Shown: positions 35,166 to 61,030, counted from the first letter of the stretch. The stretch: DNA of 61,030 nucleotides from Bacilli bacterium (GCA_017479485.1 JAFVCC010000037.1:1-61030); one strand, 5' to 3'. Translations and numbers: made by a program. The notes: generated by a model not told the origin, from the sequence alone.

Positions 35166-35390
35166 ATGGCTTTCAAGAAGATGCATTCCCGTCGTAAAGT
35201 TTGCTACTTCACGAAGAACCACATCAAATACATCGATTATAAGGATGTGGAGCTCCTTCAGAGGTTCATCTCTCCCGACGGAAAAATCACCCCGCGTTCC
35301 GCGACCGGCACCAGCGCCAAGTATCAGCGCCAGCTCGCCGTTGCGATCAAAAACGCGCGTTTCATGGGTTTGCTTCCCGAAGTGAAGTAA
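35166..35390 (+). CDS. rpsR: 30S ribosomal protein S18
   Basis: [22 protein letters not shown]; [18 protein letters not shown]. Confidence 0.96.
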
Positions 35391-35407
35391 TCTCTCGCTT
35401 GTTGTCG
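35327..35407 (+). repeat. Copy 1 of 81-bp direct repeat (rpsR 3' end plus downstream site)
   Basis: 78/81 identical to 36336..36416. Confidence 0.95.
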
Positions 35408-35662
35408 TCACACAGAATCGATCGTCCCGTTTTGTACAGAATCGATCGTCCTGACGACGAAGCAACACCACATAGAAAATCGACCTGGCTAACCGCTGGG
35501 TCTTTTCTTTTCGCCCGGCCCCGGTCGTCACACGTCGCGCGGCATCGATTCGAGTGAGCGAAACATAGTCGTCGTCGATTCTGGGTCCCACGGGTTGAAT
35601 ATGGGCCTCGTCGGAGAGAACCGATTTCGTTTTTTTTGGAGAATTGTCGTCGTCATGGAACA
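35403..35662. mobile_element. Empty mini-element 1 (260 bp): L1 35403-35463, R1 35605-35662
   Basis: Starts TGTCGTCA, ends ATGGAACA; no ORF; contains terminator hairpin. Confidence 0.7.
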
Positions 35663-35820
35663 ATTTGCGTGTTAGGACGAGAGCAATTCTCCTCGCTGAA
35701 ACCCAGCTGATTACCCCCAATGCACATCGAGCAATTCATAAATAAGACCGAGCGGTATTTGATTGACGTGCCAGCGAGATAATTGTGATAACATTTGATC
35801 GATAAAGGAGAGCTTCGATA

Positions 35821-36117
35821 ATGAGAGAAGAACTATTGAAAGGCTTGACCGAGGAACAAATCGAGAAAATCAAAAACTGCAAAGGTCAAGAAGAGATTTT
35901 GAAGATCGCTAAAGAAGAAGGTGTTGAACTCACCGATGACCAATTAGAGGCTGTTTCTGGCGGATGTGGCTTTGTTCAACCCACCAATTGCCCAGGATGC
36001 CAATCCACCAATTTCATTACAGCGGATATCAATATGGATGGCAGTAGAGTGACATATTATTGCAATAACTGCCATCGCAAATTTGTCTCTGATTCTGACG
36101 GCCCAAGAATGCTTTAA
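35821..36117 (+). CDS. Nif11/NHLP-like leader-peptide precursor with Cys-rich core
   Basis: ELTDDQLEAVSGG double-glycine leader (48 aa); 50-aa core with CPGC and CNNC; RBS AAGGAG. Confidence 0.75.
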   Translation: MREELLKGLTEEQIEKIKNCKGQEEILKIAKEEGVELTDDQLEAVSGGCGFVQPTNCPGCQSTNFITADINMDGSRVTYYCNNCHRKFVSDSDGPRML

Positions 36118-36335
36118 TCAAAAAGCTCTTTATACGAATAATGCTGGCGTTGTTCGCCCGTTTTCGATGTTTCTTTATATTCTAGTATGCTCCATTCGCG
36201 AGGAGATGTAGTGTTAATTGCTTTTCTCTGTTAACGGAAATCGGTTGCGTCAGCTTGGCGCGGATCCTTTGCTGTAGGGATAATGAAAAATATAGAAAAC
36301 CCTGCAAATCCAATACAAAATTGTGTTGGGCGTCG

Positions 36336-36416
36336 GCGCCAACTCGCCGTTGCGATCAAAAATGCGCGTTTCTTGGGTTTGCTTCCCGAAGTGAAGTAAT
36401 CTCTCGCTTGTTGTCG
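36336..36416 (+). repeat. Copy 2 of rpsR 3' end plus downstream TCTCTCGCTTGT site
   Basis: Encodes [20 protein letters not shown]; differences CAG/CAA, AAC/AAT, ATG/TTG. Confidence 0.95.
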
Positions 36417-36747
36417 CAGGACGAACCCGATTCCCCGATTTAGGACAAACCGGATTCACCTCGACGACGAAGCAAAAAGCGAATTAGACCGTCCATCGTT
36501 GGGCGGTTTTTTCATGCTCGTTCGCCCCTCGTCCTGGATCTATTTGAAACCATCGACGTCGAAGCTGCTTTATATACTTGTATATAACTCGTTCTGGCTA
36601 GCCCCGGGCGTCCCACGTCGAGCAATCGTCCTTCTGGCTGGCAAATTGTTAGCCGTCGTCGAAATCGCGTCACATGGCTCGAATATGGGCTTCGTCGGAG
36701 AGAACGAACTTCGTACTTTGCAGGAGAATGGTCGTCGTCATGGGACA
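36412..36747. mobile_element. Empty mini-element 3 (336 bp): L3 36412-36473, R3 36689-36747
   Basis: TGTCGCAGGAC...GTCATGGGACA; internal terminator and palindromes. Confidence 0.75.
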
Positions 36748-36810
36748 TGTGTTGTGTCAGGACAAGAGCAATTCTCTCCAACGAGACGAAGCTGATTCTC
36801 CCCGAAGCAC

Positions 36811-36852
36811 GAAGCAACAAATCAACAGGACCGTCCATCGCTGGGTGGTTTT
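36811..36852 (+). repeat. Terminator-like repeat M2, copy upstream of antiporter
   Basis: GAAGCAACAAATCAACAGGACCGTCC (26 bp) identical to 38222..38247, then hairpin and T tract. Confidence 0.85.
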
Positions 36853-37005
36853 CTTATGTTTCTCCTCTTGCTAGTAGTATAATTGGCTCGGGAATGATGT
36901 CTCCCATCTAGAAATAGAGAACCGCAATGAAGTGCTGATGACGTCTATGACTTGTTTTGTCATAGAAATCAGCGCTTTTGTTTCTATGGCAGATGGGGGG
37001 TATCG

Positions 37006-38196
37006 ATGAATATATTTCTGTCTTTGTTTATTATTTTTGGTGGTGGGATCCTCGGTGGGTTTTTATTTGAGAAGATCAAACTCCCCAAACTGGTGTGGTA
37101 TATCATTCTCGGGATTCTTATTGGACCATCTTTGTTCAATATCGTTGATGAAACGTTGCTGTCGGTTTCGTCTCATCTAAGGCAAATCGCTTTGGTCATC
37201 ATATTGACCAGGTCAGGCCTATCTTTGGACATTAAGAACCTAAAGAAAATAGGGCGACCTGCGATATTGATGTGCTTTTTACCCGCTTGTTTTGAAATTG
37301 CGGGCATCACGATATTTGGCCCAATGCTCCTCGGGATATCCTATTTCGAAGCCTTGCTTCTTGGCTCGGTCTTGGCGGCCGTTTCGCCGGCGGTAGTGGT
37401 TCCGAGAATGATTCGCCTAATGGAAGAAGGATATGGAAAAGAACACTGCGTGCCCGAACTTGTGATGGCGGGGGCATCTTGTGACGACATCTTTGTAATC
37501 GTCCTTTTCTATTCGTTCAAGAATCTGGTCGCAACGTCCACCTTTGACGCTTGGAGCGTCGGGCAAATCCCCATTTCGATCGTCTCCGGTGTCATTTTGG
37601 GCATCGGAGTAGGCTTCTTGATGGTTTTAGCCATTCGATACATGAAACTAAATAGAATCGTCCATGTCATTTTGATGCTCGGTCTCTCCTTCGGGATGCT
37701 CGCCCTCGAGAATGCCTTGAAACCGTATTTCAGCGTTTCGTCTCTATTAGCCATCATCGTCATGGCATTTGTGGTGGGCGTCTTTAAAAAAGAGGAAGCG
37801 AAGGAGATGCAGAAATCCTATAACGGCTTATGGCAAGGTTTTGAAATCCTATTGTTCGCTCTCGTTGGCATTGCGGTCGATGTTCGTTACGCTTTTTCAA
37901 AAGAAGGGGCAATCATCGTTGGGCTGGTTTTCATTGCGTTGGTATTTAGAAGTTTAGGCGTGTTTTGCAGCATAATTGCAACGAAATTCACTTGGAAAGA
38001 AAAACTATATATCGTCATTTCTTATCTCCCTAAGGCGACCGTTCAAGCATCGATTGGGGCGATTGCTTTGTCCGAAGGCCTTGCTTGCGGCACGTTGGTG
38101 CTGACCGCTGCGGTGGTGGCAATATTGATAACCGCTCCATTGGGTGCGATATTGATGGATAACCTGAAAAACAAATTGCTTAAGAGGGAGGCGTAG
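37006..38196 (+). CDS. Cation:proton antiporter (CPA1/NhaP-like)
   Basis: About 12 TM; LGILIGP, ILTRSGL, AAVSPAVVVP, GASCDD, PKATVQA; start set at MNIFLS. Confidence 0.85.
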   Translation: MNIFLSLFIIFGGGILGGFLFEKIKLPKLVWYIILGILIGPSLFNIVDETLLSVSSHLRQIALVIILTRSGLSLDIKNLKKIGRPAILMCFLPACFEIAGITIFGPMLLGISYFEALLLGSVLAAVSPAVVVPRMIRLMEEGYGKEHCVPELVMAGASCDDIFVIVLFYSFKNLVATSTFDAWSVGQIPISIVSGVILGIGVGFLMVLAIRYMKLNRIVHVILMLGLSFGMLALENALKPYFSVSSLLAIIVMAFVVGVFKKEEAKEMQKSYNGLWQGFEILLFALVGIAVDVRYAFSKEGAIIVGLVFIALVFRSLGVFCSIIATKFTWKEKLYIVISYLPKATVQASIGAIALSEGLACGTLVLTAAVVAILITAPLGAILMDNLKNKLLKREA

Positions 38197-38221
38197 TGAA
38201 CTTCGACTCTTTTATAGGCAA

Positions 38222-38265
38222 GAAGCAACAAATCAACAGGACCGTCCGTTTTTGAGCGGTTTTTT
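38222..38265 (+). repeat. Terminator-like repeat M2, copy downstream of antiporter
   Basis: 26-bp identity with 36811..36836. Confidence 0.85.
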
Positions 38266-38656
38266 CATGTCCGTCCCTCGTCTCGGACCTATTAGGAACC
38301 ATCGACGTCGAAGCTACTTTATATATTTGTATATAACGCGTTCTGGCTAGCCCCGGTCGGTCCACGTCGCGCGATCGTCCTTGTGGCTGGCAAATTGTTA
38401 GGCGTCGTCCGAATCGCGTCCTATGGCTCGAATATGGGCTTCGTCGGAGAGAGCGAAGTTCGTCCTTTCGGAGAGAATGGGCGTCGTCATGGGACACTTG
38501 TTGTCGCAGGACGAACCCGATTCCCCGATTTAGGACAAACCGGATTCACCCCGACGACGAAGCAACCCAGTCACTCGGCATCGGGAAAGAAGTCCACGGA
38601 TCGTGGCAACTCAAATTGAGATTAAGCCGTCCTTAATAATTGGGCGGTTTTCTCTT

Positions 38657-39448
38657 TTAGGACCCCGTGGATTCGTAACGCCTAGCGCATAATGTCCAAA
38701 TCAGCGTGGCGAGCGTGAAGAAGGCGATGGCTACCCCAACGATGATTAAGCTGAGCAAGTAGGGGTTATAGCTTCCATACAACAACGTATCGACCGGCAA
38801 AGAGATAAAGAGCCCAAAGGGGAAGATGAAAATCAGGATAAAGCGGACTGCAGCAGGGAAGATGGCAATGGGGTATTTAGCGTAGATGGTGAAGTTGTAG
38901 ACAATCTGAAGGAGCGGTCCGCTGCGCTTGAAGATAAACGCAAGCGAAGATAACGCGACTTTGAACGAGGTGATGATCAACGCGCCGAATATCGCGCCGA
39001 TAATCAAGACGAACACCGCCCCAAAGGTGACGGATACTTGCAGGTTCAAACCACAGATGACGATCATCGTTACGCCGACGATCACCTCGCCAAAGCCGTC
39101 GGGTTGGAACGTCTCCGCGAACATTTGGAAAATGACGGGGACGGGTCGCAGGAAGTGGCGGTCCATATCGCCAAGTTGAACGCGCCGATACGCCACCAAC
39201 CAGAATTCGTCGCTGAAGAGGTGATCAATGGCAATCGGAAGCATCGAAAAGCCGTAGAAGAAGCCGACTTCCGCGGGGGTATAGCCTTTTAATGAAGGGA
39301 TGACCTGCAAAATGAAGAAAATGGAACATAACGCGCAGGCGTTGGAAATCAAAAAGGAAAGGATGGAAATGACCGCGTCCTTCTTGTATTCGAGGCGGGA
39401 CAGCATGCTGCGCTTGATGCAGGTGAAATAGAGTTTGACGTACCGCAT
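38657..39448 (-). CDS. ABC-2 family permease (DUF990-like)
   Basis: Multi-TM; GDMDRHFLRPVP, AKYPIAIFP. Confidence 0.85.
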   Translation of the reverse strand: MRYVKLYFTCIKRSMLSRLEYKKDAVISILSFLISNACALCSIFFILQVIPSLKGYTPAEVGFFYGFSMLPIAIDHLFSDEFWLVAYRRVQLGDMDRHFLRPVPVIFQMFAETFQPDGFGEVIVGVTMIVICGLNLQVSVTFGAVFVLIIGAIFGALIITSFKVALSSLAFIFKRSGPLLQIVYNFTIYAKYPIAIFPAAVRFILIFIFPFGLFISLPVDTLLYGSYNPYLLSLIIVGVAIAFFTLATLIWTLCARRYESTGS

Positions 39449-39449
39449 G

Positions 39450-40289
39450 CTATCCTCCCTGCACCGTCACGAGTTTTATCGCGTGTTTGAAAAGTAATTT
39501 GCCGAGTAGTTCCAACGCAACGAGCCACGCCAACGCAATCAAAATCACCTTGGCGCATTCGAGGTAGTCGTATTTCATCATCAGAATCAAAACGGGGTTT
39601 TGGCTCATTCCCGCGAAGGGCATGTAGCTGACGATTTCGCGGAAGACGCCCGGAAAGAAAGCGATGGGAAGCAGCGTGCCCGACAAAAAGGAAACCACGG
39701 TTGTCTTCAAGGCGTTAAGGCCCCACGCCGCGGTGGTGTAGAAGCAGAGAATGCCGAAAATGTAGGAGATGGCCCCGTTTAATAAGCAAGCGAGGACGCT
39801 GGCGACTAAGAACAAGGCAAAATGAGCGATGAAATCCCACGCCGAAATCACGGGCAAATATCCGATGCCGATCAATACGCCGAGACTTCCGGCATAAAGA
39901 GGGAGGCCAAAGACGACCGCCATCATCAGGAAGGCCCCAAGGTTCGATGCGATGAACTTGCCTCGATAGGAAATCGGTTTAATCACGAAATTGCCGATCG
40001 TCCCCTCGCGCACATCGCGATTGATGAACCATAATGTGTCGTCATTGAAGGTGATAAACGTGAATATCGTCGTTAAGACGACATAGACGACCATTTCTTT
40101 GTAGGTGAATCCGTTGATGGAGGAATCGATTCCGCCTTCGCTGCTTTGGTAAACCGCGAGCCATAAGAAGACGAGACAGGCGACTTCAAAGACGGTCACG
40201 ATGGCCCAAGTGAGGATGTTAAAGCGATAGGCCATCATGTCCATGGCCGCCGCGCGGGCAAAGGGCTTATATTTTCTTAGCCTTCGCAT
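39450..40289 (-). CDS. ABC-2 family permease
   Basis: Multi-TM; DVREGTIGNFVIKP, FLSGTLLPIAFFP. Confidence 0.85.
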   Translation of the reverse strand: MRRLRKYKPFARAAAMDMMAYRFNILTWAIVTVFEVACLVFLWLAVYQSSEGGIDSSINGFTYKEMVVYVVLTTIFTFITFNDDTLWFINRDVREGTIGNFVIKPISYRGKFIASNLGAFLMMAVVFGLPLYAGSLGVLIGIGYLPVISAWDFIAHFALFLVASVLACLLNGAISYIFGILCFYTTAAWGLNALKTTVVSFLSGTLLPIAFFPGVFREIVSYMPFAGMSQNPVLILMMKYDYLECAKVILIALAWLVALELLGKLLFKHAIKLVTVQGG

Positions 40290-41277
40290 GCTCTTCCTCC
40301 TGTTGAGAGAGAATCTTCTTCACCACGTCTTCGATGGAAATGTCCGCAATTCTCATGTCAATTGCGTGATATTGGGAAAAAGCGTATTGGATGACTTGTT
40401 CGAGCACGGCCTTATCGGCGTCAAAGGAAAGGATGACTTTATCTTCGTCCACGGTCATCGTGACCTCGTCGGAAAAAGGTTTGACCGCATTAGGGTCGAC
40501 GATTGGTGGGACGGTCAACGTTAAGGTTTTGATGTTGCCAAAGCGTCGCTTTATATCTCCTAACGGACCATCATAGATGATTGATCCTTTCTCAATCATG
40601 ATGATGCGAGAGCAAAGGTTTTCGATATCCGCCATGTCATGGGTGGTGAGGACGACGGTGGTGTGGTATTTCGCGTTTAATGCATGGATGGCGTTGCGGA
40701 TTTTGTCTTTGACGAGGACGTCCATGCCAATGGTGGGTTCGTCGAGGAAGAGAATCTTAGGATTGTGGAGCATCGACGCGGCGAGGTCGGCGCGCATTCT
40801 TTGGCCTAAGGAAAGGGTGCGGACAGGTTGATTCATAAATTCATCGATACCCAGGACGGAGGATAAAAAGGTAATTCGCTCTTCGTAATCGGAATCGCTG
40901 ACTTGATAGATTTCTTTGAGAACCTTGAAGGACTCCACCAAAGGGATGTCCCACCATAATTGGGACTTTTGTCCGAAAACGACGCCGATGTCTTTGGCGA
41001 CGATGCGACGCTTAAGATAAGGTTCTTTCCCATCGACGAGGACTTTTCCGGATGTAGGCGTGAGGATGCCACACATCATTTTGATGGTCGTGGATTTGCC
41101 CGCGCCGTTAGAACCGATATAGCCGACAATCTCGCCTTCGGGGATATCGAAAGAAACATCATCGACGGCGCGAGTCTCCGTGTACTTACGGGAAAACAGC
41201 GTAGAAAGCATTCCAATAAGGCCTTTGCCTCTTATTGGCTTACGAAAAACTTTTACGAGGTTTTGGACTTGAATCAT
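40267..41277 (-). CDS. ABC exporter ATPase
   Basis: GSNGAGKS, VVFGQKSQLWWD, LSLGQRMR, LDEPTIGMD; start set at MIQVQN. Confidence 0.9.
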   Translation of the reverse strand: MIQVQNLVKVFRKPIRGKGLIGMLSTLFSRKYTETRAVDDVSFDIPEGEIVGYIGSNGAGKSTTIKMMCGILTPTSGKVLVDGKEPYLKRRIVAKDIGVVFGQKSQLWWDIPLVESFKVLKEIYQVSDSDYEERITFLSSVLGIDEFMNQPVRTLSLGQRMRADLAASMLHNPKILFLDEPTIGMDVLVKDKIRNAIHALNAKYHTTVVLTTHDMADIENLCSRIIMIEKGSIIYDGPLGDIKRRFGNIKTLTLTVPPIVDPNAVKPFSDEVTMTVDEDKVILSFDADKAVLEQVIQYAFSQYHAIDMRIADISIEDVVKKILSQQEEEHAKAKKI

Positions 41278-41565
41278 GGTGGGGTGCTCTTTGGTCGCTT
41301 CATTATACCTTATCAACGGAACAAGATAGAGCTTAGTCGGAGAGAGCGAAGTTCGTCCTTTCGGAGAGAATAGGCGTCGCCATGGGACAGTTGTTGTTGT
41401 GCCAGGACGAGAACAATTCTCCAAGATAATACGAAGAACGTTCTCCCCGAGACACGAAGCAAAAGCGAATTAGACCGTCCCTCTGAGCGGCTTTTTATGC
41501 TTTGGATATGTGGATTATCAATCACAAATCGAAGATAATTAACATGGTTAAGGAGGCTAAATAAA

Positions 41566-42555
41566 ATGAAAAACGAAATACTGATTTATAACCTTCCTGA
41601 TGGCGGGTCCAATGTCGAAGTGTACCTAAACGAAGACGATATTTGGATGACTCAATTAAGCTTGGCCGATATGTTTCAAACGTCAAAAGCCAACATTACG
41701 ATGCATATCCAAAACATATATAAAGAGGGCGAACTTCAGGAAGATCGAACTAGTAAGTGGGGCTTACTACTTCGAGACGAGGGAACGAGGGCCGTAAGAA
41801 GAAAAACCAAACTCTATAATCTCAAAATGATTATTGCGATTGGCTTCCGCACCAAAAGTTCCACCGCGACCGCCTTTCGCGTTTGGGCGAATAATATCCT
41901 CCAACAATACATGGTAAAGGGTTTTGCCATCGATGATAAACGTCTTGAGGACCCAACGAAGTTCGGAAGAGATTATTTTGATGAACTCTATCTTAGAATC
42001 AGGGCAATCCGCGCATCGGAAAAACGTTTTTACCAGAAAGTCTTGGATATTTATTCAACAAGCGTTGATTACAACAAAAACGATGAGCAGACCCTGCTCT
42101 TCTTCAAAACCGTCCAAAACAAATTACATTACGCTATTTCAGGCGAGACGGCGGCGGAACTCATTTATCATCGGGCAGATGCCTCAAAGGATAACATGGG
42201 TTTAACGACTTGGTGGGGCGAGCACGTTCAAAAAAGTGACGTGACGATTGCCAAAAACTATTTGTCCCAAGAAGAAATAGACTCATTGAACCAAATCGTG
42301 AACATGTATTTGGATCATGCGGAAAGAATGGCTCAGTCCAATATCCCGATGCACATGAGCGATTGGATTAACGTCCTGGACGAATTCTTGAAGTTCGAAC
42401 GCGCGGATATTCTTGTGGGGGCTGGGAAAATCTCCCATGCACTAGCGGAACAAAAAGCTCATAAGGAATATGAGAAGTTCGATGCTTCTCGCCAAATTGC
42501 GATGACAGCAAACCTTGATAAAGACCTTTTGGACGTCCTTAAGAAAAAGAAATAA
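41566..42555 (+). CDS. RhuM-family (virulence RhuM) DNA-binding protein
   Basis: IWMTQLSLADMF, IIAIGFR, FRVWA, YMVKGFAIDD, FFKTVQNKLHYA, IAKNYL. Confidence 0.85.
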   Translation: MKNEILIYNLPDGGSNVEVYLNEDDIWMTQLSLADMFQTSKANITMHIQNIYKEGELQEDRTSKWGLLLRDEGTRAVRRKTKLYNLKMIIAIGFRTKSSTATAFRVWANNILQQYMVKGFAIDDKRLEDPTKFGRDYFDELYLRIRAIRASEKRFYQKVLDIYSTSVDYNKNDEQTLLFFKTVQNKLHYAISGETAAELIYHRADASKDNMGLTTWWGEHVQKSDVTIAKNYLSQEEIDSLNQIVNMYLDHAERMAQSNIPMHMSDWINVLDEFLKFERADILVGAGKISHALAEQKAHKEYEKFDASRQIAMTANLDKDLLDVLKKKK

Positions 42556-42560
42556 TCACT

Positions 42561-43259
42561 ATGGATAAGAGAGAGTTAGGGCAAAGACTCAGAGCAATTC
42601 GAAAAAGGAGGGGTTACTCTCAACAGACACTCGCCGAAATGATGGGCTATAAAGATCGTTCCACGCTGGCAAAGGTAGAAAACGGCATAAACGACATAAC
42701 CATTGAAACTTTATATCGATACGCGGATGTTTTAGAAACTGACGTGGAAGAACTTCTCGGGATTAAGAAATCCAGAAAGATAATCCAGAATTGCAAGGTT
42801 TTTAGCTTTGAAACAGAAAAGATTAAAGTAGCGATTCGCGAAATCGAAAAGAAGGATTACCCTGCTGTGGCCTTTATCTGGCGCGAGGTTTTAGATGTTC
42901 CTACAACGGATGATGATTTGAAGAAAACCTATGAGAAGATGAGAGGTGATGACCGTTATCATACGCTGATTGCCGAAGTTGACGGAGAAGCAGTGGGGCT
43001 GGTGACGACGGTATTTAGTTACGCGGTCGGCCATCCCAACGGATATGTCAAAATCAACGGCCTTGGAGTGCGGCAAGAGTATCGACGCAAAGGAATCGGG
43101 AAAGCGTTGCTCGAGGCCGCGGAGCGGGTTGCTATCGACAGCGGCGCCCCATATATCGCTCTTGCGTCTGGCTTTGCTCGCGAAGAGGCACATGCTTTTT
43201 ATGAGGACAGCGGATATCAAAAGACGTCCTATTGGTTTAGAAAGAGATTAAATAAATAA
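42561..43259 (+). CDS. XRE HTH fused to GNAT acetyltransferase
   Basis: SQQTLAEMMGYKDRSTLAKVE; RRKGIGKALL acetyl-CoA motif. Confidence 0.85.
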   Translation: MDKRELGQRLRAIRKRRGYSQQTLAEMMGYKDRSTLAKVENGINDITIETLYRYADVLETDVEELLGIKKSRKIIQNCKVFSFETEKIKVAIREIEKKDYPAVAFIWREVLDVPTTDDDLKKTYEKMRGDDRYHTLIAEVDGEAVGLVTTVFSYAVGHPNGYVKINGLGVRQEYRRKGIGKALLEAAERVAIDSGAPYIALASGFAREEAHAFYEDSGYQKTSYWFRKRLNK

Positions 43260-43469
43260 TCGGCCGCGTCGGGCGATATCGATTCAAGCGAGTGAATTAT
43301 AGCATCTGTCGATTCTGGGCCACACGGGTCGAACATGGGCCCCGTCGGAGAGAGCGGAGTTTGTTCTTTTTCCGAAGAATTGGCGTCGTCATGGGAAATC
43401 TGTAAATAGTCGCTAATATATTATCAAATAACATTGGATATATAGGTAAAAATGCTAAAATATTAGCGT

Positions 43470-43760
43470 ATGGAAGAAGAAGCATTGCAATTTGTCACTT
43501 ACTATGAAAAGCAATTAGAAATTGCGAAACGTTTTATCGTTATTAGAAAGAGTAAAAAGGTATCACAACAGAGATTATCTGTTCTTTCTGGTGTGTCGTA
43601 TGCATCCATCCGAAGATTTGAAAAAACGGGTGATATATCTTTGGCATCATTAGTTAAACTTGCCTTAGCGTTACAACTATATGATGACTTGGATAATTTG
43701 TTTAAAAATCATCTGACTTATAAATCCATTGAGGAAATAATTAATGATCAGAAAGATTGA
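43470..43760 (+). CDS. XRE HTH antitoxin (HipB-like)
   Basis: SQQRLSVLSGVSYASIRRFE; overlaps hipA start. Confidence 0.8.
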   Translation: MEEEALQFVTYYEKQLEIAKRFIVIRKSKKVSQQRLSVLSGVSYASIRRFEKTGDISLASLVKLALALQLYDDLDNLFKNHLTYKSIEEIINDQKD

Positions 43761-44835
43761 GGTTTTTGCCAGCAAAATTAAAGTAGGCACCCTTGCTTTA
43801 ACAAACGATAATAGAGTGGCTTTTCAATATACAGATGAATGGGTAGAAAAAGGATTCTCGATTAACCCATTTAAACTCCCTTTATCGAAGCAACTTTTTT
43901 ATGCAACATCACCGCATTTTAAAGGTCTTTTTGGAGTTTTCGCAGATTCTTTACCAGATAGTTATGGCGAATTATTGTTGGACCGCTATTTGAAAAGAAA
44001 GAATATAAATATTAGTGACTTAACGTGTCTAGATAGACTTGCTTATGTCGGTTGTTCAGGGATGGGGTTATTGGAATATATACCTGATTTCAGTGAAGAT
44101 ACTGATAGAAGCAATATTGATTTTGATGCTGTTCAAAAAGATTGCATCGACCTATTAGATTCAAAAAAAGTCGATAACATTACTAATCTTTTTTCCTTGG
44201 GCGGATCTAGTGGCGGCGCGAGACCGAAATCATTAATTAAATATGATGGCGAGGATTATATTGTTAAGTTCTCTTCCAAATTTGATCCTAAAAACATAGC
44301 TGAACTTGAATTTAAATATATGTCTCTTGCCAAGGAAGCCAGAATTAATATACCTACAATCAAGTTGGTTACTTCTAAATCTGGCAATAAGTATTTTTTG
44401 ATCAAGAGATTTGATCGAGAATCCAACAAGAAGATTCATATGATAAGTGCGGCCGCACTATTAGAAGTCGATTTTAGAGCACCTTGTCTTGATTATAATG
44501 AATTAATAAAACTGACTAGGATAATAACGAGAAATGAAAATGATGTTTTAGAGATGTTCAGAAGAATGGTTTTTAATGTTCTAATTGATAATCAAGATGA
44601 CCACGCTAAAAACTTTTCATTCATCTACGATGGTGTAATCAAAACATATAGGTTATCTCCTGCATATGACATAACTCCGGGCAGGACATATTATGGCGAA
44701 CATACGACATCAGTTAACGGAAAAGGTAAAAATATAACAGACGATGATATGCTTAGGGTCGCGATTAATAACAAAATAAATCTTGCTACCGCACAACGAA
44801 TTATTGAAATGTGTAAATGCATTCTAAATAAATAG
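43744..44835 (+). CDS. hipA: HipA-family kinase toxin
   Basis: FADSLPDSYG, SSGGARPK, IKRFDR, NQDDHAKNFS, LSPAYD; AT-rich DNA. Confidence 0.9.
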   Translation: MIRKIEVFASKIKVGTLALTNDNRVAFQYTDEWVEKGFSINPFKLPLSKQLFYATSPHFKGLFGVFADSLPDSYGELLLDRYLKRKNINISDLTCLDRLAYVGCSGMGLLEYIPDFSEDTDRSNIDFDAVQKDCIDLLDSKKVDNITNLFSLGGSSGGARPKSLIKYDGEDYIVKFSSKFDPKNIAELEFKYMSLAKEARINIPTIKLVTSKSGNKYFLIKRFDRESNKKIHMISAAALLEVDFRAPCLDYNELIKLTRIITRNENDVLEMFRRMVFNVLIDNQDDHAKNFSFIYDGVIKTYRLSPAYDITPGRTYYGEHTTSVNGKGKNITDDDMLRVAINNKINLATAQRIIEMCKCILNK

Positions 44836-44878
44836 GAAACAACAAACCAATAAGACCGTCCATCACTGAGCGATTTTT
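44836..44878 (+). repeat. Terminator-like repeat M2 immediately after hipA stop
   Basis: GAAACAACAAACCAATAAGACCGTCCATCACTGAGCGATTTTT resembles 36811..36852. Confidence 0.7.
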
Positions 44879-44928
44879 AATAACCCCTGTTTGTTGAAAA
44901 AACATAAACAAATTTATATAGATATTTT

Positions 44929-45888
44929 ATGAACGATTCAGCGCCTCTAGCTTTATTGGATGAAAGCCAAATCAAGGACCTTATTTATGAAGTCCGCGGT
45001 CAAAAGGTAATGCTAGATTTTGATTTGGCCAGAATCTATGGTTATGGGACATCTGCTTTTAATCAACAAATTAAGAGGAATTTGGATCGGTTCCCCCAAG
45101 ACTTCTCCTTTCAATTAAGAAAGCAAGAATTTGAGTCCATCTTGCTATCACATTTTGTGACATCAAGTTGGGGCGGGAGAAGGAGTTTGCCGCGCGCATT
45201 TACCGAACAGGGCATATATATGCTCATGACCGTTTTGCATGGCAATCTCGCAATTGAGCAGAGCATAACGCTGATTCGTCTTTTTAGATCCATGAAGGAC
45301 TATATTGCGGAAACACAATCTTTAAGTTCGACCAACGAGGTCCTTGCTTTGACTAACCAAGTACGGGCAAACACGGAGGCTATTGCAAAAGTCGAAGGAA
45401 AACTGGAGATGGTGATGGATAGTTTTATCGACCCGTCCACCTATAAATCCTTCTTAATTATGGATGGCGAGAGAATCGAATCCGACATTGCTTACCAACG
45501 GATTTATTCTATGGCGAAGCAAAGTATTTATTTGATTGACGACTACATCGACGTCAAGACGATCCAGCTGCTCAAACCCTGCGATTCGGGCGTGCGCATC
45601 ATCGTCTTTTCCGACAACAAGGCCAGAAATTCGCTGACCCAGTCGTTCATCGTGGATTTTATTGCCGACCGTCCCGATCTCCATATCGAATTTAAAAAGA
45701 CCAAGGGAAGGTTCCATGACCGCTACGTGATTTTGGATTATCCCGACAAAACCCGGGTCTTCCACTGCGGAGCGTCCTCCAAAGACGGCGGAAACAAAAT
45801 AACAACGATAATGGAAGTGGAGAATCCGGAAGCCTATCTTAATTTGATTTCTGATATTCTCTCAAACGAGGAGCTGATTCTTCCGTGA
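44929..45888 (+). CDS. ORF6N-domain DNA-binding protein with C-terminal extension
   Basis: IYEVRGQKVMLDFDLARIYG, KRNLDRFPQDF, AFTEQGIYML. Confidence 0.85.
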   Translation: MNDSAPLALLDESQIKDLIYEVRGQKVMLDFDLARIYGYGTSAFNQQIKRNLDRFPQDFSFQLRKQEFESILLSHFVTSSWGGRRSLPRAFTEQGIYMLMTVLHGNLAIEQSITLIRLFRSMKDYIAETQSLSSTNEVLALTNQVRANTEAIAKVEGKLEMVMDSFIDPSTYKSFLIMDGERIESDIAYQRIYSMAKQSIYLIDDYIDVKTIQLLKPCDSGVRIIVFSDNKARNSLTQSFIVDFIADRPDLHIEFKKTKGRFHDRYVILDYPDKTRVFHCGASSKDGGNKITTIMEVENPEAYLNLISDILSNEELILP

Positions 45889-46622
45889 AACAATTGAAAG
45901 ACAAGGTCAAAGAAATCCGCAATAGGGAAGGCTTATCCCAAGAAGAAATGGGGAAGAGGGTAGGCTATACCAACCGAGCGAGCATCAACAAAATCGAAAA
46001 CGGCAATGGCGATGTCCCTTTCGATAAGCTGATTGACCTGATAAACGAGTATCTTCTTGAATTAAATGACTTAACGAACAAAGATGTAGTCGAATACTCA
46101 TTACGAGACCTTAAACTGGACGATTGGAAAGAACTGATCGTCGTCTATAAAGACGTCATGTGTGTCCCGTTCTTCAATTCGGATAATTGCCACGGCGATA
46201 TCTTCTATTATTCGACTGAGGAGCGAATGAAGAAGGCAATACGCTTTTGGATAGATTCTACCTCAAAGGGACACTTCGTCCGAAAAGTCATCATAGACAA
46301 CTCGAATAATCGAGCGATTGGAACCATCGAATATTTCATTCGGCAAAACGAGCCGAATTATAATGACGTCATTCTCCTTCGAGTAGATGTGCATCATTAC
46401 TATGAACAAAAGAAGGCACTCGTGAAGATCTTTAGGATCGCAATAAAAGAAGCCTTTTCCGCTTTTGGGAGGCTGCCGTTATTGACGAAAGGGTGGAGCT
46501 ATGCCGTGGAACGAAAAGAAGCTTTGTCCTTCTTGGGCTTCAAAGAGTGTAGCGAACCGCTCATTGGTCACGAAAACGAGTCGTTTCAACACTATTGGCT
46601 GGTCCAAAACAAAGACGTGTGA
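45885..46622 (+). CDS. XRE HTH fused to a GNAT-like domain
   Basis: SQEEMGKRVGYTNRASINKIE; C-terminal fold assignment weaker. Confidence 0.65.
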   Translation: MKQLKDKVKEIRNREGLSQEEMGKRVGYTNRASINKIENGNGDVPFDKLIDLINEYLLELNDLTNKDVVEYSLRDLKLDDWKELIVVYKDVMCVPFFNSDNCHGDIFYYSTEERMKKAIRFWIDSTSKGHFVRKVIIDNSNNRAIGTIEYFIRQNEPNYNDVILLRVDVHHYYEQKKALVKIFRIAIKEAFSAFGRLPLLTKGWSYAVERKEALSFLGFKECSEPLIGHENESFQHYWLVQNKDV

Positions 46623-46711
46623 TTAGCAAACCAATGGCTCGAATATGGGCCTCATCGGAGAGAACAGAGTCTGTTCTTTTTCTGAGAATCGGCGTCGTCA
46701 TGGAACATATT

Positions 46712-46780
46712 TGGAGTAGGACGGTTGTGCTTTGTCTCAGCTGGTAAAACGGTTTTCCTCACAAAGCATTAGTCGAAGCA
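46712..46780. repeat. Degenerate seventh left end
   Basis: TGGAGTAG-GAC start; CGAAGCA near expected offset; follows R7 after 4 bp. Confidence 0.4.
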
Positions 46781-46972
46781 TATGTGGGCGTTATTGAATG
46801 TAAAAGAATGGCATATATCTAAAAAGCCACAATCTAAGAAATTATCCAAAAATTCCTGCAGAACAAGGATATTTTTCAATTCATGACGGGCTTGGATTAC
46901 GTCGCTACAGCCTTCTTCCTCTTGTGTTAAGAATGAGATAAAGCGTCTATAATTTGGGCAAGGAGTTCCCCT

Positions 46973-47929
46973 ATGCCTCATTCTTCTGGCGGTGGGTCAA
47001 GCGGAGGCGGATTCCATTCTGGAAGCTCCTCCAGCGGCGGCCCAAGCTATCGTACCTCATCGCATTATTTCGCGGGATCGACCTGCTATGTTTACTATGG
47101 TCGTAACGGCCGACTTCATACCGTCTATACAAACAATCCAAATAGTCCGACGAAGAAATCCACCATCCTTACTTTCGTGATGCTCGGCGTCATGATGATT
47201 GCGGGTGGACTCGTTGCTTTCTTTGGGGGCTACCATAACCCCAGCAAATTACCAACGGACTATTCGACGAGCATTCTGATTCAAGATGAAACCGACGTTT
47301 TGGATGAGGACGACGAAGCCAAACTACGCAGTACATTCCAGGAATTCTTCACGGTAACGGGCATCTGCCCGAGCGTCCTTGCTGTCGATAACAGCGTGTG
47401 GAACACTCATTACGCCTCTCTTGAAGGCTATGCTTATGATGCCTACCTTGCTCGCTTCAAAGACGAGTCCCATTGGCTCATCGTCTATAGCGACGTCGGT
47501 GGCAGCCACGACAATTGGTCCTTTGAGGGAATGCAAGGAAACGACACCGACAGCATTCTCTTTACTTCCGTGACGGACCGTTTCAATGAATCCCTTTACG
47601 ATAGCCTTAGCGACAAACGGCCCGTCGGCGAATCCATCGAAACGGCATTTCGCCTCATCATGCCGAACATCATGGATAAGAACTATCACTTGGAACTCCC
47701 TCTTTTGATATTCGTTATCGTTTGGGAAGGCGCATTAATCGCCGTGTTGGTTCGCTCGATTCTGCAGTGTTTTCAGAACAAAGGAATGCAAAGCGGAACC
47801 AAAATCGAAGGTCAACCGACCATCAAAAAATGCCCGTTTTGTGATAATGAGTACGCGCAGGGGACGGTTATCCGCTGCCCGAAGTGCGGCGGCATGCTCC
47901 ATTTCGATGCATTCGGGCCGAAAGAATAA
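46973..47929 (+). CDS. Membrane protein with Gly/Ser N-terminus, TPM-like domain and C-terminal zinc ribbon
   Basis: Two TM segments; ILIQDETDVL; CPFC...CPKC. Confidence 0.6.
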   Translation: MPHSSGGGSSGGGFHSGSSSSGGPSYRTSSHYFAGSTCYVYYGRNGRLHTVYTNNPNSPTKKSTILTFVMLGVMMIAGGLVAFFGGYHNPSKLPTDYSTSILIQDETDVLDEDDEAKLRSTFQEFFTVTGICPSVLAVDNSVWNTHYASLEGYAYDAYLARFKDESHWLIVYSDVGGSHDNWSFEGMQGNDTDSILFTSVTDRFNESLYDSLSDKRPVGESIETAFRLIMPNIMDKNYHLELPLLIFVIVWEGALIAVLVRSILQCFQNKGMQSGTKIEGQPTIKKCPFCDNEYAQGTVIRCPKCGGMLHFDAFGPKE

Positions 47930-48088
47930 TCCCCGTATCATGTTGCAGCGCTAGCAATGCTGGCATTAGACAGCTCCATGTGGGCGGTTTTATCTTGGGG
48001 GGCAAGGACAAATCAGGGCGCGGTAGGCCCGCCAATTGAAGGCAGATTGTGCTTTATGTATATAGTGACGTACCCGATAATCAATGAT

Positions 48089-48766
48089 ATGACCGAGATA
48101 CAAGAATACTTATTGTCTCAAGCGGATCCGAAATACCGCGACTTTACCCTGCCTTTAATTCCAAATGTCGACGAAAAGACATTCATCGGCGTACGCTTGC
48201 CGGTTCTTAAGAAATACGCCAAGGAGCTCAACCAAAAACAACGGGAAGAATTCCTCTCTTCGCTTCCTCATCCATATCACGAAGAAAACATATTGCATGC
48301 CTTCCTGCTCTCAAACATGAAGGATTACGACGAATTTCTTCGTTATGTCGATGCCTTCTTACCCTTTGTTACCAATTGGTCCGTATGCGACGCCATCTGC
48401 AATAAATATTTGAATCGGCATAAGGAGTCCTTAATCAAAGAAATTGAGCGGTGGTTAAAAAGCTCCGAGGTCTATCGGGTAAGATACGCGGTCAAATGCT
48501 TGATGAATTACTACCTGGGCGAGGATTTTAAAGAAGAATATATTCAAAAGGTCGCCGAAGTAAAACTTGAAGACTACTACGTCAAAATGATGATTGCTTG
48601 GTACCTCGCGACGGGGTTAGCGAAGAATTACGACCCGTTTATTCGAGCCATTGAAGAACGACGATTTGATTCATCCATCCATAACAAGACAATACAGAAA
48701 GCCGTAGAGTCCTACCGCGTCAGTGAAGAACACAAACAGTATCTAAAGACATTAAAAATCAAATAG
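48089..48766 (+). CDS. DNA alkylation repair protein (AlkD-like)
   Basis: FIGVRLP, YHEE, NWSVCD, YYVKMMIAWYLA; start set at MTEIQE. Confidence 0.8.
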   Translation: MTEIQEYLLSQADPKYRDFTLPLIPNVDEKTFIGVRLPVLKKYAKELNQKQREEFLSSLPHPYHEENILHAFLLSNMKDYDEFLRYVDAFLPFVTNWSVCDAICNKYLNRHKESLIKEIERWLKSSEVYRVRYAVKCLMNYYLGEDFKEEYIQKVAEVKLEDYYVKMMIAWYLATGLAKNYDPFIRAIEERRFDSSIHNKTIQKAVESYRVSEEHKQYLKTLKIK

Positions 48767-48885
48767 GGGATACCTTTGAGCCCGCTTGTTGCATGGGAAG
48801 ATATATTCCTTTATGCGACGCAAAATATGATGGACAAAACTAGAAATCCCGCCAAAAAGCGGCCAAAATACTTTAAATCCAGCTT

Positions 48886-49590
48886 ATGGGAAAACAAAAA
48901 AGCGTTCAAATATTGGTTGATTATCTCGGTTCTGATCTTCCCTCTGAAACCGACCAATATCCCTTAGGGTCCGTTTTTGAACTATCGGTTTTAGCGTGGC
49001 ATCACGAGATGGAGCTCTCATCCATCGCGTTCTTTGACGTAGAAGGCAATGAGCCAGTGAAGCCCAAAGACCTTCAAATCAAGGAGCTGGATCGGAGTTA
49101 CAAAGACCTCTATTGGTGGTATCAGCGCGAAGAGGATTATCAAAGGATCGTTTCCTTCACAGTGACGCAGCCAACTCGCGTCGTCGCCACCTATACACGA
49201 AGCTCGAAGCGCGTGGTTTTAATCATAGACACTAAAGCGCTAGGCAAAGATATCGACTTAAGCGCCTCCTACTTGTATTGTCAGGAAATGACGTATAACA
49301 ATTCGAAATGTCGTTTTGAAGGCGGCCCCCGGTTTTATTTCGATCTTAAGGACGATATGACCTTTGGCCTTGTGGTTTCTGTTGGAACGAACGTGGATAT
49401 GGAACTTGACGGTGCGACTCATCATTGCACTATCCGTAAGAGAATTAGTGCTGGCTGGGATCTTCTGATTTTTGGGACGCTTGATGAAGATGATGGATAT
49501 GGCGACACCATCAAAGGGGAAGGCGAGCACATCTTACTTCAAAACACAGAATCCATAGTGCGTTTCTTACCGCAAGATCAAAAAGACTAA
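48886..49590 (+). CDS. Hypothetical protein
   Basis: 234-aa ORF, no recognised motif. Confidence 0.6.
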   Translation: MGKQKSVQILVDYLGSDLPSETDQYPLGSVFELSVLAWHHEMELSSIAFFDVEGNEPVKPKDLQIKELDRSYKDLYWWYQREEDYQRIVSFTVTQPTRVVATYTRSSKRVVLIIDTKALGKDIDLSASYLYCQEMTYNNSKCRFEGGPRFYFDLKDDMTFGLVVSVGTNVDMELDGATHHCTIRKRISAGWDLLIFGTLDEDDGYGDTIKGEGEHILLQNTESIVRFLPQDQKD

Positions 49591-49663
49591 AATCGATACT
49601 TTTTAGCTCACGCCCCTCTTCTTTTTTCTTGCGCATTGCGCGCGAAGGGTTATTGTTTCGTCT

Positions 49664-50701: not shown

Positions 50702-50703
50702 TC

Positions 50704-51393: not shown

Positions 51394-51423
51394 AAAGGGA
51401 AAAGCGATTAGAATTTCGCCCAT

Positions 51424-53532: not shown

Positions 53533-53543
53533 TCGTCCGAAAT

Positions 53544-53565
53544 AAGCGGCCTCAGGTCGCTTTTT
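53544..53565 (+). terminator. Intrinsic terminator
   Basis: AAGCGGCC-TCA-GGTCGC-TTTTT. Confidence 0.65.
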
Positions 53566-53632
53566 CATTTGTTTACGAATTTATTTGTATTCAAATGTAT
53601 TTTTATGTATAACTATGTGTAGGAGGTTAAAA

Positions 53633-55385: not shown

Positions 55386-55514
55386 TCCGACTCAAACCGA
55401 TGGGGATATAGCTTCATCGGTTTTTTCCTCTGCAAATCCCCAACGAATTGGAACAACTGTATATTTTTGCGCGGTTATCATCTACAATTTCGATTCTGGC
55501 GGAGGAAGCACTCT

Positions 55515-56075: not shown

Positions 56076-56096
56076 CACGCACACTCATGCACACAT

Positions 56097-58547: not shown

Positions 58548-60620
58548 ATGCCAGAAACGAAGAAGAGCACTCATCGACGCAACGTCGCTATGTCCGACGC
58601 ATTGCGAGCCATGCGTATTCGCATGCTGCTTTTCACTTTTCTTGAAGTGGCGTTGATCGGCACTGCAATCGTTTTCTATTACTACGATTACCCCGTTGGG
58701 TTCCGCGCTTTCATGAAGGCGGATTACTGGGTGTTTGCCCTTTGTGGCGTCTTTGCCATCAACATTCTTTACCTTTGGGCTGCCGCGGCAAGGATGTCAA
58801 GCCTTCGTCATCGCACCGACCTTGATGCGGCTTCCATCATCGGCTCCGACGTCCAAGAGGCCTACAACTTTGGCGAAATCGGGCTCGTCGTCGTCGATGA
58901 CCGCGACACGGTTATTTGGGACAACAACTTGCTCAAAGACCGTCAGGTTAACTTGCTTGATATGAATATCTTGGAGTGGCAACCCGCCCTCCGCGATTTG
59001 AAAAATGCTCCGGCAGACATGGTGGTTAAAATCGAAGTCAACGGCCGTAACTACAGCGTGAAGTACCTTTCCGACGCCCGACTTTACATCTTTAAGGACA
59101 CCAGCGAATACGAATCAATCTTCAATTACTCTCGTGTCCACGCGACGGTCGTCGGCGTCATCATGATCGATAACTTCACCGAAATCGTCGGCAAAACCGA
59201 AGACGAAAACAACGACCTTGTCACCACGATTCGTCAGGAAATACTGAACTATTGCAAGGAAAAAGGCGTTTTGCTTCGTCGTTTCCGTAATGATTCCTAC
59301 TTCGCGGTTTGCAACTATGCATCCCTTCAAAAGATGGAAGAAGATGGTTTCTCCCTCCTCGCCAAGGTACGTATGCTGGGCAAAGGGCAAAACATCGCGC
59401 CGACCCTTTCCATCGGTTTTGCGCACGACTTCCCCAACGTCATCAAACTGAACGAAATGGCCAGCAGCGCGATCGATATGGCTATGTCTCGTGGCGGCGA
59501 CCAAGCGGTCGTATCGCGTTACGGCGACGACATTAAGTTCTATGGTGGTAAGACCGCTGCTTTAGAGAACTCCTCGGCGGTTAAGTTCCGCACCAACGCT
59601 GATGCGATCTTAAGCATCATCGGCGACTCCAAAGAAGTCTTGGTCATGGGCCATAATGACATGGATATGGATGCCCTCGGCGCTTGCATTGGCGTCTATG
59701 CGATGTGCCTTTACCTAAAGAAACCTTGCTCCATCATCATCGACTTGAAACGCACGGAGAAGAAGACTCGTGGTGCGTTCTTAGCCACGTTTGATAAAGA
59801 AACTCGTGACCGCATCGCCATCTCACCGCGCCAAGCCGAAGAACGTTTGGCTTCGGTTCCATCTGCGCTTCTTGCTGTGGTCGACGTTTCGGTCCCTCAA
59901 AACGTCATGGCGCCTCGCGCGCTTGAGAAGGCCAACAAGATCATCTGCATTGACCACCATCTCCGCGGCGAATCTTACTTAGAAAAGCCCGTATTCGAAT
60001 ACATCGATCCATCGGCGTCTTCCGCTTCGGAAATCTTCTCCGAGTTCATCCATTACGCTTCGGGCAACCCACGTATTGAAATCCCGAGCAACCTTGCGAC
60101 CACGATGCTCGCCGGTATCTTCCTCGACACCAACTTCTTCAAGTCGAACTCGGTCGGCGTGCGTACCTTCGAGGCGGCAGAAGTGCTCCGTGATTTTGGC
60201 GCTGACCCACGTCGCGCGGACGATTATCTGAAAGACGAATACGAAGAATACTTGCTCGTCAACAAGATCGCTTCGACCATGAAATCGCCTTATCGAGGCG
60301 TCATGTATGCAGTGTGCGACGATTCGGACATCATCGACCGCGCTACCTTAGCCAAAGTCGCGAACACCTTGATGGCCTTAAAGGACACCAATGCGGCATT
60401 CGTTATCGGCAAAGTAGGCGAGCGTGAGTGGCGCGTATCCGCGCGTAGCGACCAAACGATTAACGTGCAGTTGCTTTGCGAAAAAATGGGAGGCGGTGGC
60501 CATTTTACGATGGCGGCCTGCGCCTTCCCCAATTCCACTTTAGCCATCGTTGAAGGCAAATTGTTAAATACTCTAGCGACTTATCTCGAAGACGCTAGAA
60601 GCGATGCAGGAGGCAATTAA
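58548..60620 (+). CDS. gdpP: c-di-AMP phosphodiesterase (TM, degenerate GGDEF, DHH/DHHA1)
   Basis: SRGGDQAV, GHNDMDMDALG, IDHH, GIFLDT, GGGGH; precedes rplI. Confidence 0.9.
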   Translation: MPETKKSTHRRNVAMSDALRAMRIRMLLFTFLEVALIGTAIVFYYYDYPVGFRAFMKADYWVFALCGVFAINILYLWAAAARMSSLRHRTDLDAASIIGSDVQEAYNFGEIGLVVVDDRDTVIWDNNLLKDRQVNLLDMNILEWQPALRDLKNAPADMVVKIEVNGRNYSVKYLSDARLYIFKDTSEYESIFNYSRVHATVVGVIMIDNFTEIVGKTEDENNDLVTTIRQEILNYCKEKGVLLRRFRNDSYFAVCNYASLQKMEEDGFSLLAKVRMLGKGQNIAPTLSIGFAHDFPNVIKLNEMASSAIDMAMSRGGDQAVVSRYGDDIKFYGGKTAALENSSAVKFRTNADAILSIIGDSKEVLVMGHNDMDMDALGACIGVYAMCLYLKKPCSIIIDLKRTEKKTRGAFLATFDKETRDRIAISPRQAEERLASVPSALLAVVDVSVPQNVMAPRALEKANKIICIDHHLRGESYLEKPVFEYIDPSASSASEIFSEFIHYASGNPRIEIPSNLATTMLAGIFLDTNFFKSNSVGVRTFEAAEVLRDFGADPRRADDYLKDEYEEYLLVNKIASTMKSPYRGVMYAVCDDSDIIDRATLAKVANTLMALKDTNAAFVIGKVGEREWRVSARSDQTINVQLLCEKMGGGGHFTMAACAFPNSTLAIVEGKLLNTLATYLEDARSDAGGN

Positions 60621-60622
60621 AC

Positions 60623-61030
60623 ATGAGAGTCATTTTATTGGCCGACGTGAAGAAAGTCGGCAAGAAGGGCGAGACCGTCGAGGTTTCTGACGGCTACGGC
60701 GCCAATTTCTTAATCCCGAGAAAACTCGCCAAGCTTTCCACCGAAGCGAGCCAGGCCGAACTTGCCCGCGATAACGCGGCGGAAGCGGCCCACCAAAAAG
60801 AGCTTAAGGCCAAAGCTGAAGCGGTCGCCCAAAGGCTCGAAAGCATCGAGGTGAAGTTCACCACGAAAGTTGGTAAAGACGGTAGGATGTTTGGCACCGT
60901 TTCCCCTAAGGAAATCGTTGAAGGACTAGAAAAACAATGGGGAATTACCGTGGATAAACGGAAATTTATCGATAAATACCCCGTTAATGCTTTGGGCTAC
61001 ACTCGACTCAAAATCGAACTTTACAAAGGC
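60623..61030 (+). CDS. rplI: 50S ribosomal protein L9 (runs off window end; not in ORF track)
   Basis: MRVILLADVKKVGKKGETVEVSDGYGANFLIP...GRMFGTVS. Confidence 0.95.
   Translation, partial: MRVILLADVKKVGKKGETVEVSDGYGANFLIPRKLAKLSTEASQAELARDNAAEAAHQKELKAKAEAVAQRLESIEVKFTTKVGKDGRMFGTVSPKEIVEGLEKQWGITVDKRKFIDKYPVNALGYTRLKIELYKG

Follow-up and report, generated by a model that had tools for sequence, protein, structure and literature searches.

What builds a row of like-ended DNA segments directly behind an essential ribosomal protein gene? The question is raised by rpsR, the gene of ribosomal protein S18, in a member of Candidatus Enteromonas, an uncultured lineage of Bacilli from gut and rumen that we take to belong to order RF39, family UBA660 (GTDB). 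The stretch analysed here, referred to as the window, is contig C64 (61,030 nt) of a metagenome-assembled genome (MAG) of 1.7 Mb in 149 contigs that is 62% complete. In the window rpsR is the last gene of the operon rpsF-ssb-rpsR, its stop codon lies at 35388-35390, and the first of a stack of transposon ends begins 12 bp past it. We consider it likely, with a probability of roughly 0.78, that non-autonomous Tn7-type transposons which carry cargo and home to the 3′ end of rpsR have built this stack as an island.

A fixed insertion site behind rpsR

An initial annotation of the window had placed six left and six right ends behind rpsR, all in one orientation, and had expected them not to be scattered over the genome; all of these ends were confirmed (Table 1, numbered L1 to L6 and R1 to R6 in order). 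The right ends follow the consensus GAGAATnGnCGTCGTCATGGrACA and score E = 4e-16 to 6e-21 with a sequence-only model of the right end, while R5 terminates in ..GGGAAA. The left ends fall into two related types, A (TGTCGCAGGACGAACCCGATTC) and B (TGTGYCAGGACRAGAGCAATTCTC), and L2 opens with CGT, not TGT; the outer termini of a mini-element read TGTCGCAGGACGA... on one side and ...CGTCGTCATGGGACA on the other. Reverse-complemented right ends align to the left ends with z = 9-11 above shuffled controls, so that the ends are true terminal inverted repeats. In a single end, two or three sites of ~22-24 bp that start with GAC come after an 8-bp tip, and a terminator-like hairpin downstream of the left ends provides the rpsR-proximal end with a built-in intrinsic terminator. 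Elsewhere in the genome only two further right ends occur, both on contig C21, and the ends are therefore not scattered genome-wide.

This second locus with ends of the same type (genome G000, contig C21, about 12981-14484, minus strand) contains a right end, CTAAG, a type A left end, a nucleotidyltransferase-type gene pair and a truncated right end that adjoins an unrelated gene, and its left border is cut by the contig end. C21 was considered as a strain variant of the rpsR locus and rejected, as its flanks differ.

The position of the rpsR-proximal end was compared over 32 distinct junctions. The distance to the rpsR stop codon lies between 5 and 14 bp, depending on how long the RpsR C-terminus is (...EVK, ...YVAD, ...EAGQR, ...EVGAK), whereas the distance to the Met codon of the conserved motif NARFMGLLP is 38, 39, 40 or 41 bp in 4, 10, 17 and 1 junctions, respectively. 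The site is thus measured from conserved coding sequence, a sharper form of the invariant distance proposed initially. The insertion point itself falls in non-conserved spacer, and the rpsR-proximal end is identical in kind in 32/32 junctions, corresponding to a single orientation. TnsD positions Tn7 behind glmS in the same way, by measuring from conserved coding sequence.

Comparison of filled and empty sites revealed the target duplication. In the empty alleles of G407 and G398 the sequence from the rpsR stop onwards reads TAA-TCTTGATGGGGCAGATGTGAC, i.e., TAA-TCTTGAT-GGGGC-AGATGTGAC, and in the filled allele of G392 (...TTGATGGGGC[335 bp]GGGGCAGATGTG) an empty element has GGGGC on both sides, the junctions reading ...TTGAT-GGGGC-[335-bp empty element]-GGGGC-AGATGTG. 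Empty-site alleles with a single 5-bp target, which had been anticipated, hence exist. In G422 a single 1.75-kb element is flanked by CCCGC on both sides, and in G024 a two-unit composite lies between ACAAA repeats and is followed by the native terminator. An exact 5-bp repeat (AGTTG, GGGGC, ACAAA, TGATG, CCCGC, ATTGT or GATGT) is present in 7 of the 17 loci that have a first left end together with one or more right ends, compared with ~0.03 expected by chance.

Elements of this kind are not restricted to the window. The right-end model matched 21 of 401 RF39 genomes, 13 of them from the same genus and 8 genera in total, with 1-12 matches per genome; each species was represented by a single MAG among the genomes searched, and mobile DNA is often missing from assemblies of this kind. 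An exact pattern scan yielded 17 loci in species-representative genomes and another 27 in contigs of rumen and human-gut metagenomes. In 9/17 and 10/27 of these, rpsR is found immediately upstream in the same orientation, and most loci without rpsR in the fetched stretch are short or begin inside an array. The right ends are near-identical across genera (TTCTTTTTCGGAGAATTGGCGTCGTCATGGGACA), although the RpsR proteins of those genera are only 63-86% identical.

The content of the arrays varies between close relatives, in line with the variable cargo foreseen in the initial annotation. An identical RpsR protein is encoded on ten contigs from different samples and is followed by at least six different arrays. 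L198 shows the same arrangement as the window; in L194 the first three units are absent and the array starts directly with the transporter unit, being otherwise 98% identical, and further contigs with the identical RpsR open with other units. The same kind of array variation was observed in a human-gut species.

One component of the stack is itself a target. The segment starting at L2 carries a Nif11-like leader peptide gene and leads into rpsR′, a second copy of the rpsR end, and a left end starts immediately after this copy. The module R1-ATTTG-L2-Nif11 gene-rpsR′ was found in other strains (L195, L196 and L198), the real rpsR being 1.6 kb and 5.7 kb away, and in L195 a left end lies 12 bp past the stop of the rpsR′ copy; in all, rpsR′ serves as an insertion target in at least three strains. 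Because rpsR′ copies are followed directly by left ends, the element starting at L2 carries a portable attachment site, and this site has been hit by insertion. We know of no description of such a portable site for Tn7-like elements.

The rpsR end is also used by other end families in the same genus. At least three unrelated TGT-led families (TGTAGTTTCCCGGGC..., TGTGGTCGCAGGGAC... and TGTCGGCGCGCAGGTCG...) begin 12-15 bp past the rpsR stop (L153, L158, L165-L168), with accessory genes and no transposase as cargo; G431 provides the empty allele of G170.

Composition of the stack and its cargo

The order of the ends along the stack is L R L L R L R L R L R R, which is incompatible with six plain head-to-tail units: the single orientation given in the initial annotation stood, the simple unit structure did not. 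Instead, the stack is partly nested or derived via the portable rpsR′ site. The L2 segment has no right end of its own before rpsR′, and the right-end-only segment at the far side of the stack probably represents the distal portion of an outer element starting at L2. ATTTG precedes L2 and is seen again, one base off, after R6, which hints at an outer element of ~11 kb from L2 to R6 enclosing four inner units. The array of L194, in which the inner units stand directly behind the real rpsR and ATTTG is the end of the spacer, complicates this history. The junction pentamers in the stack are CTTGT, ATTTG, TGTGT, CTTGT, GTTGT(TGT) and TCTGT, the spacer pentamer CTTGT being the one that recurs at the R3/L5 junction (38497-38501).

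Table 1 Features of the rpsR locus in the window and, in the last row, transposase relics on other contigs.
Feature	Position	Strand	Description
rpsR (ribosomal protein S18)	35166..35390	+	Pfam Ribosomal_S18, E = 2.6e-25; 3′ coding end is the putative recognition sequence
Spacer, 12 bp	35391..35402	+	Final 5 bp (CTTGT) at target pentamer position
Left ends L1-L6, first base	35403, 35668, 36412, 36753, 38502, 41398	+	
Right ends R1-R6, last base	35662, 36747, 38496, 41389, 43398, 46707	+	
Unit 1, empty 260-bp mini-element	35403..35662	+	Variant left end, terminator hairpin (35482-35502), arm, R1
L2 segment	35668..36335	+	Type B left end (CGT), Nif11-like leader peptide gene (35821-36117)
rpsR′	36336..36411	+	Last 64 bp of rpsR and 12-bp spacer; 76 bp, 96% identity
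Unit 3, empty 336-bp mini-element	36412..36747	+	Type A left end, terminator, TATATA-palindrome arm, R2
Unit 4	36753..38496	+	Type B left end, fluoride riboswitch, transporter, second tail and terminator, arm, R3
Fluoride riboswitch	36881-36954	+	Rfam RF01734, 37.4 bits
Na+/H+-exchanger-family transporter	36952-38196	+	ORF; Pfam Na_H_Exchanger
Unit 5	38502..41389	+	Type A left end, three-gene ABC-2 transporter, R4
ABC-2 transporter genes of unit 5	38657-39448, 39450-40289, within 40267-41424	minus	Third interval holds the ATPase
Unit 6	41398..43398	+	Type B left end, RhuM (41566-42555), HTH-GNAT (42561-43259), R5 (GGGAAA)
Right-end-only segment	43404..46707	+	hipB-like (43470-43760), hipA (43744-44835), further cargo, R6
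Further cargo of right-end-only segment	44929-45888, 45885-46622	+	ORF6N; HTH protein
Degenerate seventh left end	about 46712..46790	+	Other type, ..GGAGTAGGACGG..GCATTAGTCGAAGC; follows R6
gdpP and rplI	58548..61030	+	Pfam; conserved right-hand neighbours of rpsR
TnsB relics	L249 14924-15388 (G821:C238); L248 397-854 (G817:C69)		58-78% identity to G833 protein; one with internal stop

Individual units recur elsewhere. A near-identical copy of the empty unit 3 stands behind rpsR in G024 and G392, and the tail motif of the degenerate seventh left end is common to left ends in G040 and L049. In unit 4 the cargo is followed by a second copy of the left-end tail and terminator and then by the arm of an empty unit, and in G024 the same cargo abuts a short right end of 35 bp, suggesting that deletions join neighbouring units to one another. 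In agreement with such fusions, the left-end tail plus terminator is repeated inside units, right after cargo genes, at 36807-36859, 38218-38270 and 44832-44884.

As the initial annotation had described, the units are either empty (260 and 336 bp) or loaded with unrelated accessory genes. No transposase, integrase or resolvase domain was detected in the 16 open reading frames (ORFs) scanned between 35.8 and 46.6 kb, and the fluoride riboswitch was the sole Rfam match, the arms matching no RNA family. The riboswitch lies directly upstream of the Na_H_Exchanger-family gene and both travel together as transposon cargo; this 414-aa protein recurs behind rpsR in many genomes and metagenome contigs. 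The Nif11-like gene moves together with the portable rpsR′ site. A recurrent protein of 470 aa that has no Pfam match was considered as the enzyme and rejected, since it has the look of a secreted or surface protein and was judged to be cargo. In one strain (L195, 11215-12702) an IS4-type transposase gene (DDE_Tnp_1, 495 aa) lies inside the rpsR array, probably as an ordinary insertion sequence (IS).

Between the last recognizable end and gdpP lie ~11.7 kb (46800-58500) with genes for DNA-alkylation repair, GNAT, methyltransferase, NfeD/Band7, endonuclease I and uridine kinase functions as well as a 702-aa ORF without Pfam match. In relatives without insertions gdpP and rplI follow ~1.7 kb from rpsR (gene order in L170 and L171), and part of this region may therefore be older island material without surviving ends.

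Mobilization and competing explanations

How would such a stack arise? By analogy with Tn7, whose pathway is known, a TnsD/TniQ-type selector would bind the conserved last codons of rpsR and recruit an ATPase and a TnsB-type DDE transposase, which would insert the element in one orientation ~39-40 bp past the Met codon of NARFMGLLP, with duplication of 5 bp in the non-conserved spacer. As the selector would read rpsR itself, each newcomer would land between rpsR and the previous element, and elements would stack. Adjacent elements could then fuse by deletion into multi-gene units, and the element with a copy of the rpsR end brings along a second landing site. We infer here which enzymes act, in what order the elements arrived and that fusions took place, and the grammar of the ends points to mobilization in trans by a TnsB/TnsC/TniQ-type machine.

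No TnsB-type DDE transposase gene was found in any unit or in the genome, no TnsC/TniB or TniQ/TnsD homologue in the genome or the arrays, and a phmmer search of every ORF in the genome and the arrays, using a TnsB/TniB/TniQ set as query, returned nothing. Contigs encoding the exact RpsR proteins (30 places) hold no tns genes, and the right-end pattern scan of genome and metagenome contigs led to further arrays with cargo only. A high-GC contig with a spurious 630-aa ORF (L105) and a eukaryote-like contig (L104) were set aside as chance matches. Since no element encodes the machinery, the helper must act in trans, its probable carrier being an autonomous relative that is rare or unassembled.

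Several results weigh against homing by Tn7-type transposons. The autonomous element with the same ends that the initial annotation had hoped for did not turn up, as no transposase is linked to these ends in the genome, the genus, the family sample or the viral and metagenome contigs. The rve domain (PF00665) is absent from the genome, a MAG of 62% completeness; its matches in 58 genomes of the genus all lie in open frames of ≤520 aa, as do the only matches in 14 end-bearing genomes, and the inspected genes are IS-like without rpsR-stack ends nearby. TniQ (PF06527) had no credible match in 401 RF39 genomes, and matches to Mu-transpos_C (PF09299), which comprised Mu-like phage transposases, an FtsH false positive and compact Tn7-like elements, were never located at rpsR in 401 family and 399 class genomes. 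Three end patterns had zero matches in viral contigs, and an empty unit compared with plasmid and phage records gave no match. Within the stack, the internal junction pentamers are merely similar, not identical, and the stacking of like-ended elements is contrary to classical Tn7 target immunity; as like ends stack directly, immunity seems to be weak or bypassed.

The compact Tn7-like elements are the nearest candidates for a related machinery. In G833, from the same bacterial family, a 5.2-kb contig (L234, G833:C65) encodes a 149-aa ORF corresponding to the mini-TnsA of its relatives, a 586-aa TnsB, TniB and TniQ. Members (L234, L241-L245 and L250-L255) typically possess a mini-TnsA of ~114 aa, TnsB of ~586 aa, TniB of ~405 aa, TniQ of 290-450 aa and usually a resolvase; their TnsB is missed by Pfam rve, its homologues are detected by PF27135, and more than 3,000 homologues of the G833 TnsB occur in gut metagenomes. 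Like the rpsR mini-elements, these autonomous transposons stand at gene 3′ ends, 11-14 bp past a tRNA gene (L241, L254) or a methyltransferase-like gene (L250, with a C-terminus resembling RNA methyltransferase), and have a TGT end, a terminator hairpin and an AT-rich TATATA arm; bacterial family (G833) and habitat are also shared. However, 0/9 contexts of compact-family TniQ or TnsB homologues are at rpsR, the alignment z-test between compact-family and rpsR-stack ends was not significant, and blastn and nhmmer comparisons of the units with compact-family ends recovered the TATATA block only. Decayed fragments of a compact-family TnsB are present in two Enteromonas genomes, one of which also holds rpsR-stack ends (Table 1). 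Our best guess for the cognate helper is a sister of the compact family with an rpsR-specific TniQ.

The negative searches could also mean that the elements are fossils, i.e., that a Tn7-like rpsR-homing family has lost its autonomous members and the arrays now change without transposition, by deletion, duplication or homologous exchange via the rpsF-ssb-rpsR and gdpP-rplI flanks. The missing helper in 58 genus genomes and ~400 genomes each of family and order, the decayed TnsB fragments as the only yield of the genus, the drifted junction pentamers and the degenerate ends (CGT at L2, GGGAAA at R5, the truncated right end on C21) would fit such a history. We nevertheless regard it as unlikely, in view of right ends that stayed almost identical across genera despite the divergence of RpsR, perfect 5-bp duplications in lineage-specific spacers with empty alleles in sister species, and arrays that differ among strains with identical RpsR; moreover, the helper was sought in the representative MAGs, with their frequent loss of mobile DNA.

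A different mover is far less probable. A non-Tn7 DDE transposase of the IS21, IS3, IS481 or IS4 type, with the rpsR bias coming from a host factor or DNA structure, would draw on the IS-type rve genes that are common in the genus, on an IS21-like pair and on the IS4-type gene, the latter even inside one array, and IS21 ends likewise begin with TGT and contain repeated sites. However, the flanks of the checked IS21-like pair are unlike the rpsR-stack ends, no such ends surround seven other rve matches, and G000, G382 and G436 have perfect insertions with zero rve matches; we are also not aware of one-orientation insertion 39-40 bp from a coding motif for any of these four IS types. Least probable of all, in our judgement, are cassettes of a site-specific recombination system, be it integron-like or similar to the SaPI4-family islands. 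In favour of such a system are the cassette-like look of the array, the known role of rpsR as an integrase hub (PMC8407400) and the resemblance of the duplicated rpsR 3′ end to an attL/attR duplication, but the flanking repeats are 5 bp long, genome-specific and match the local spacer, the units terminate in TGT...ACA inverted repeats next to which subterminal sites recur, rpsR is not truncated and the scanned stack ORFs lack integrase and resolvase domains.

Homing by Tn7-type transposons also allows a bolder extension, which we put forward tentatively and hold to be rather doubtful, namely that the rpsR mini-elements form a self-extending, transposon-built equivalent of an integron whose mover is off the chromosome or beyond the reach of Tn7 profiles. 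The elements would, just as tentatively, be almost exclusively transposase-less carriers that spread copies of their own attachment site, and the mover might, with the same reserve, reside on an unbinned plasmid or phage or be an enzyme set that current Tn7 profiles do not recognize. If so, the helper would be a new, highly compact or highly divergent system of rpsR-specific selector and transposase.

Relation to known mobile elements

Tn7-like transposons home via TnsD/TniQ to attTn7 past glmS, to tRNA genes, comM and other sites, and repeated insertion at one site produces islands. The rpsR elements share with them the TGT...ACA ends with an 8-bp tip and several ~22-bp sites, the 5-bp duplication, the single orientation, the fixed distance past the coding end of a conserved gene that stays intact, and islands with relic ends. 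They differ in that every rpsR element found lacks tnsA, tnsB, tnsC and tniQ, in the direct stacking of like ends and in the attachment site copy carried by one of them. As the features of transposition are present and the tns gene content is not, the rpsR elements are non-autonomous derivatives of a Tn7-type family rather than Tn7-like transposons proper. The initial annotation knew of no such use of rpsR, and this still holds: rpsR and S18 go unmentioned in two broad surveys of where Tn7-like elements insert and what they carry (PMC10293859, PMC8649781), we found no published report joining Tn7-like transposition with rpsR in the literature searched, and the staphylococcal islands known at this gene are integrase-dependent.

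The end of an essential ribosomal protein gene would accordingly be a new and precise homing site for Tn7-type transposition in a poorly known gut and rumen lineage. Reduced genomes of 1-2 Mb carry strain-variable arrays here that were built without a resident transposase and whose cargo includes a fluoride-riboswitch-controlled transporter, ABC-2 transporter genes and HipBA, RhuM, TIR and HepT proteins. The helper, if found, would be a new protein-guided system for site-specific insertion with a target conserved across many Bacilli.

The absence of a transposase is a feature shared with MITEs (miniature inverted-repeat transposable elements) and the Tn3-derived inverted-repeat miniature elements (TIMEs). 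Such elements, for example the TIMEs (PMC4133298), keep the inverted repeats of their parent, are mobilized in trans and can form mosaic, cargo-carrying units. The rpsR elements match this picture with their inverted ends, target duplication and transposase-less empty forms of 260 and 336 bp in the window and 335 bp in G024 and G392; they differ in being site-specific, low in copy number with 1-12 ends per genome, and mostly gene-bearing. The rpsR 3′ end is, furthermore, the hub of the SaPI4 family of phage-inducible chromosomal islands in staphylococci, which use a tyrosine integrase and a fixed 15-bp core overlapping rpsR (PMC8407400). Both systems thus exploit the rpsR end as a hub of mobile islands in Bacilli, but the rpsR stack has variable 5-bp duplications past the stop codon and no integrase among its 16 ORFs, the search for integrases being confined to these and not genome-wide. 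The overall organization resembles an integron in its look, as accessory genes poor in promoters are lined up in one orientation and the array grows at the end next to a fixed site. In contrast to integrons, the rpsR stack has no attC-like site, and its units are bounded by transposon ends and target duplications.

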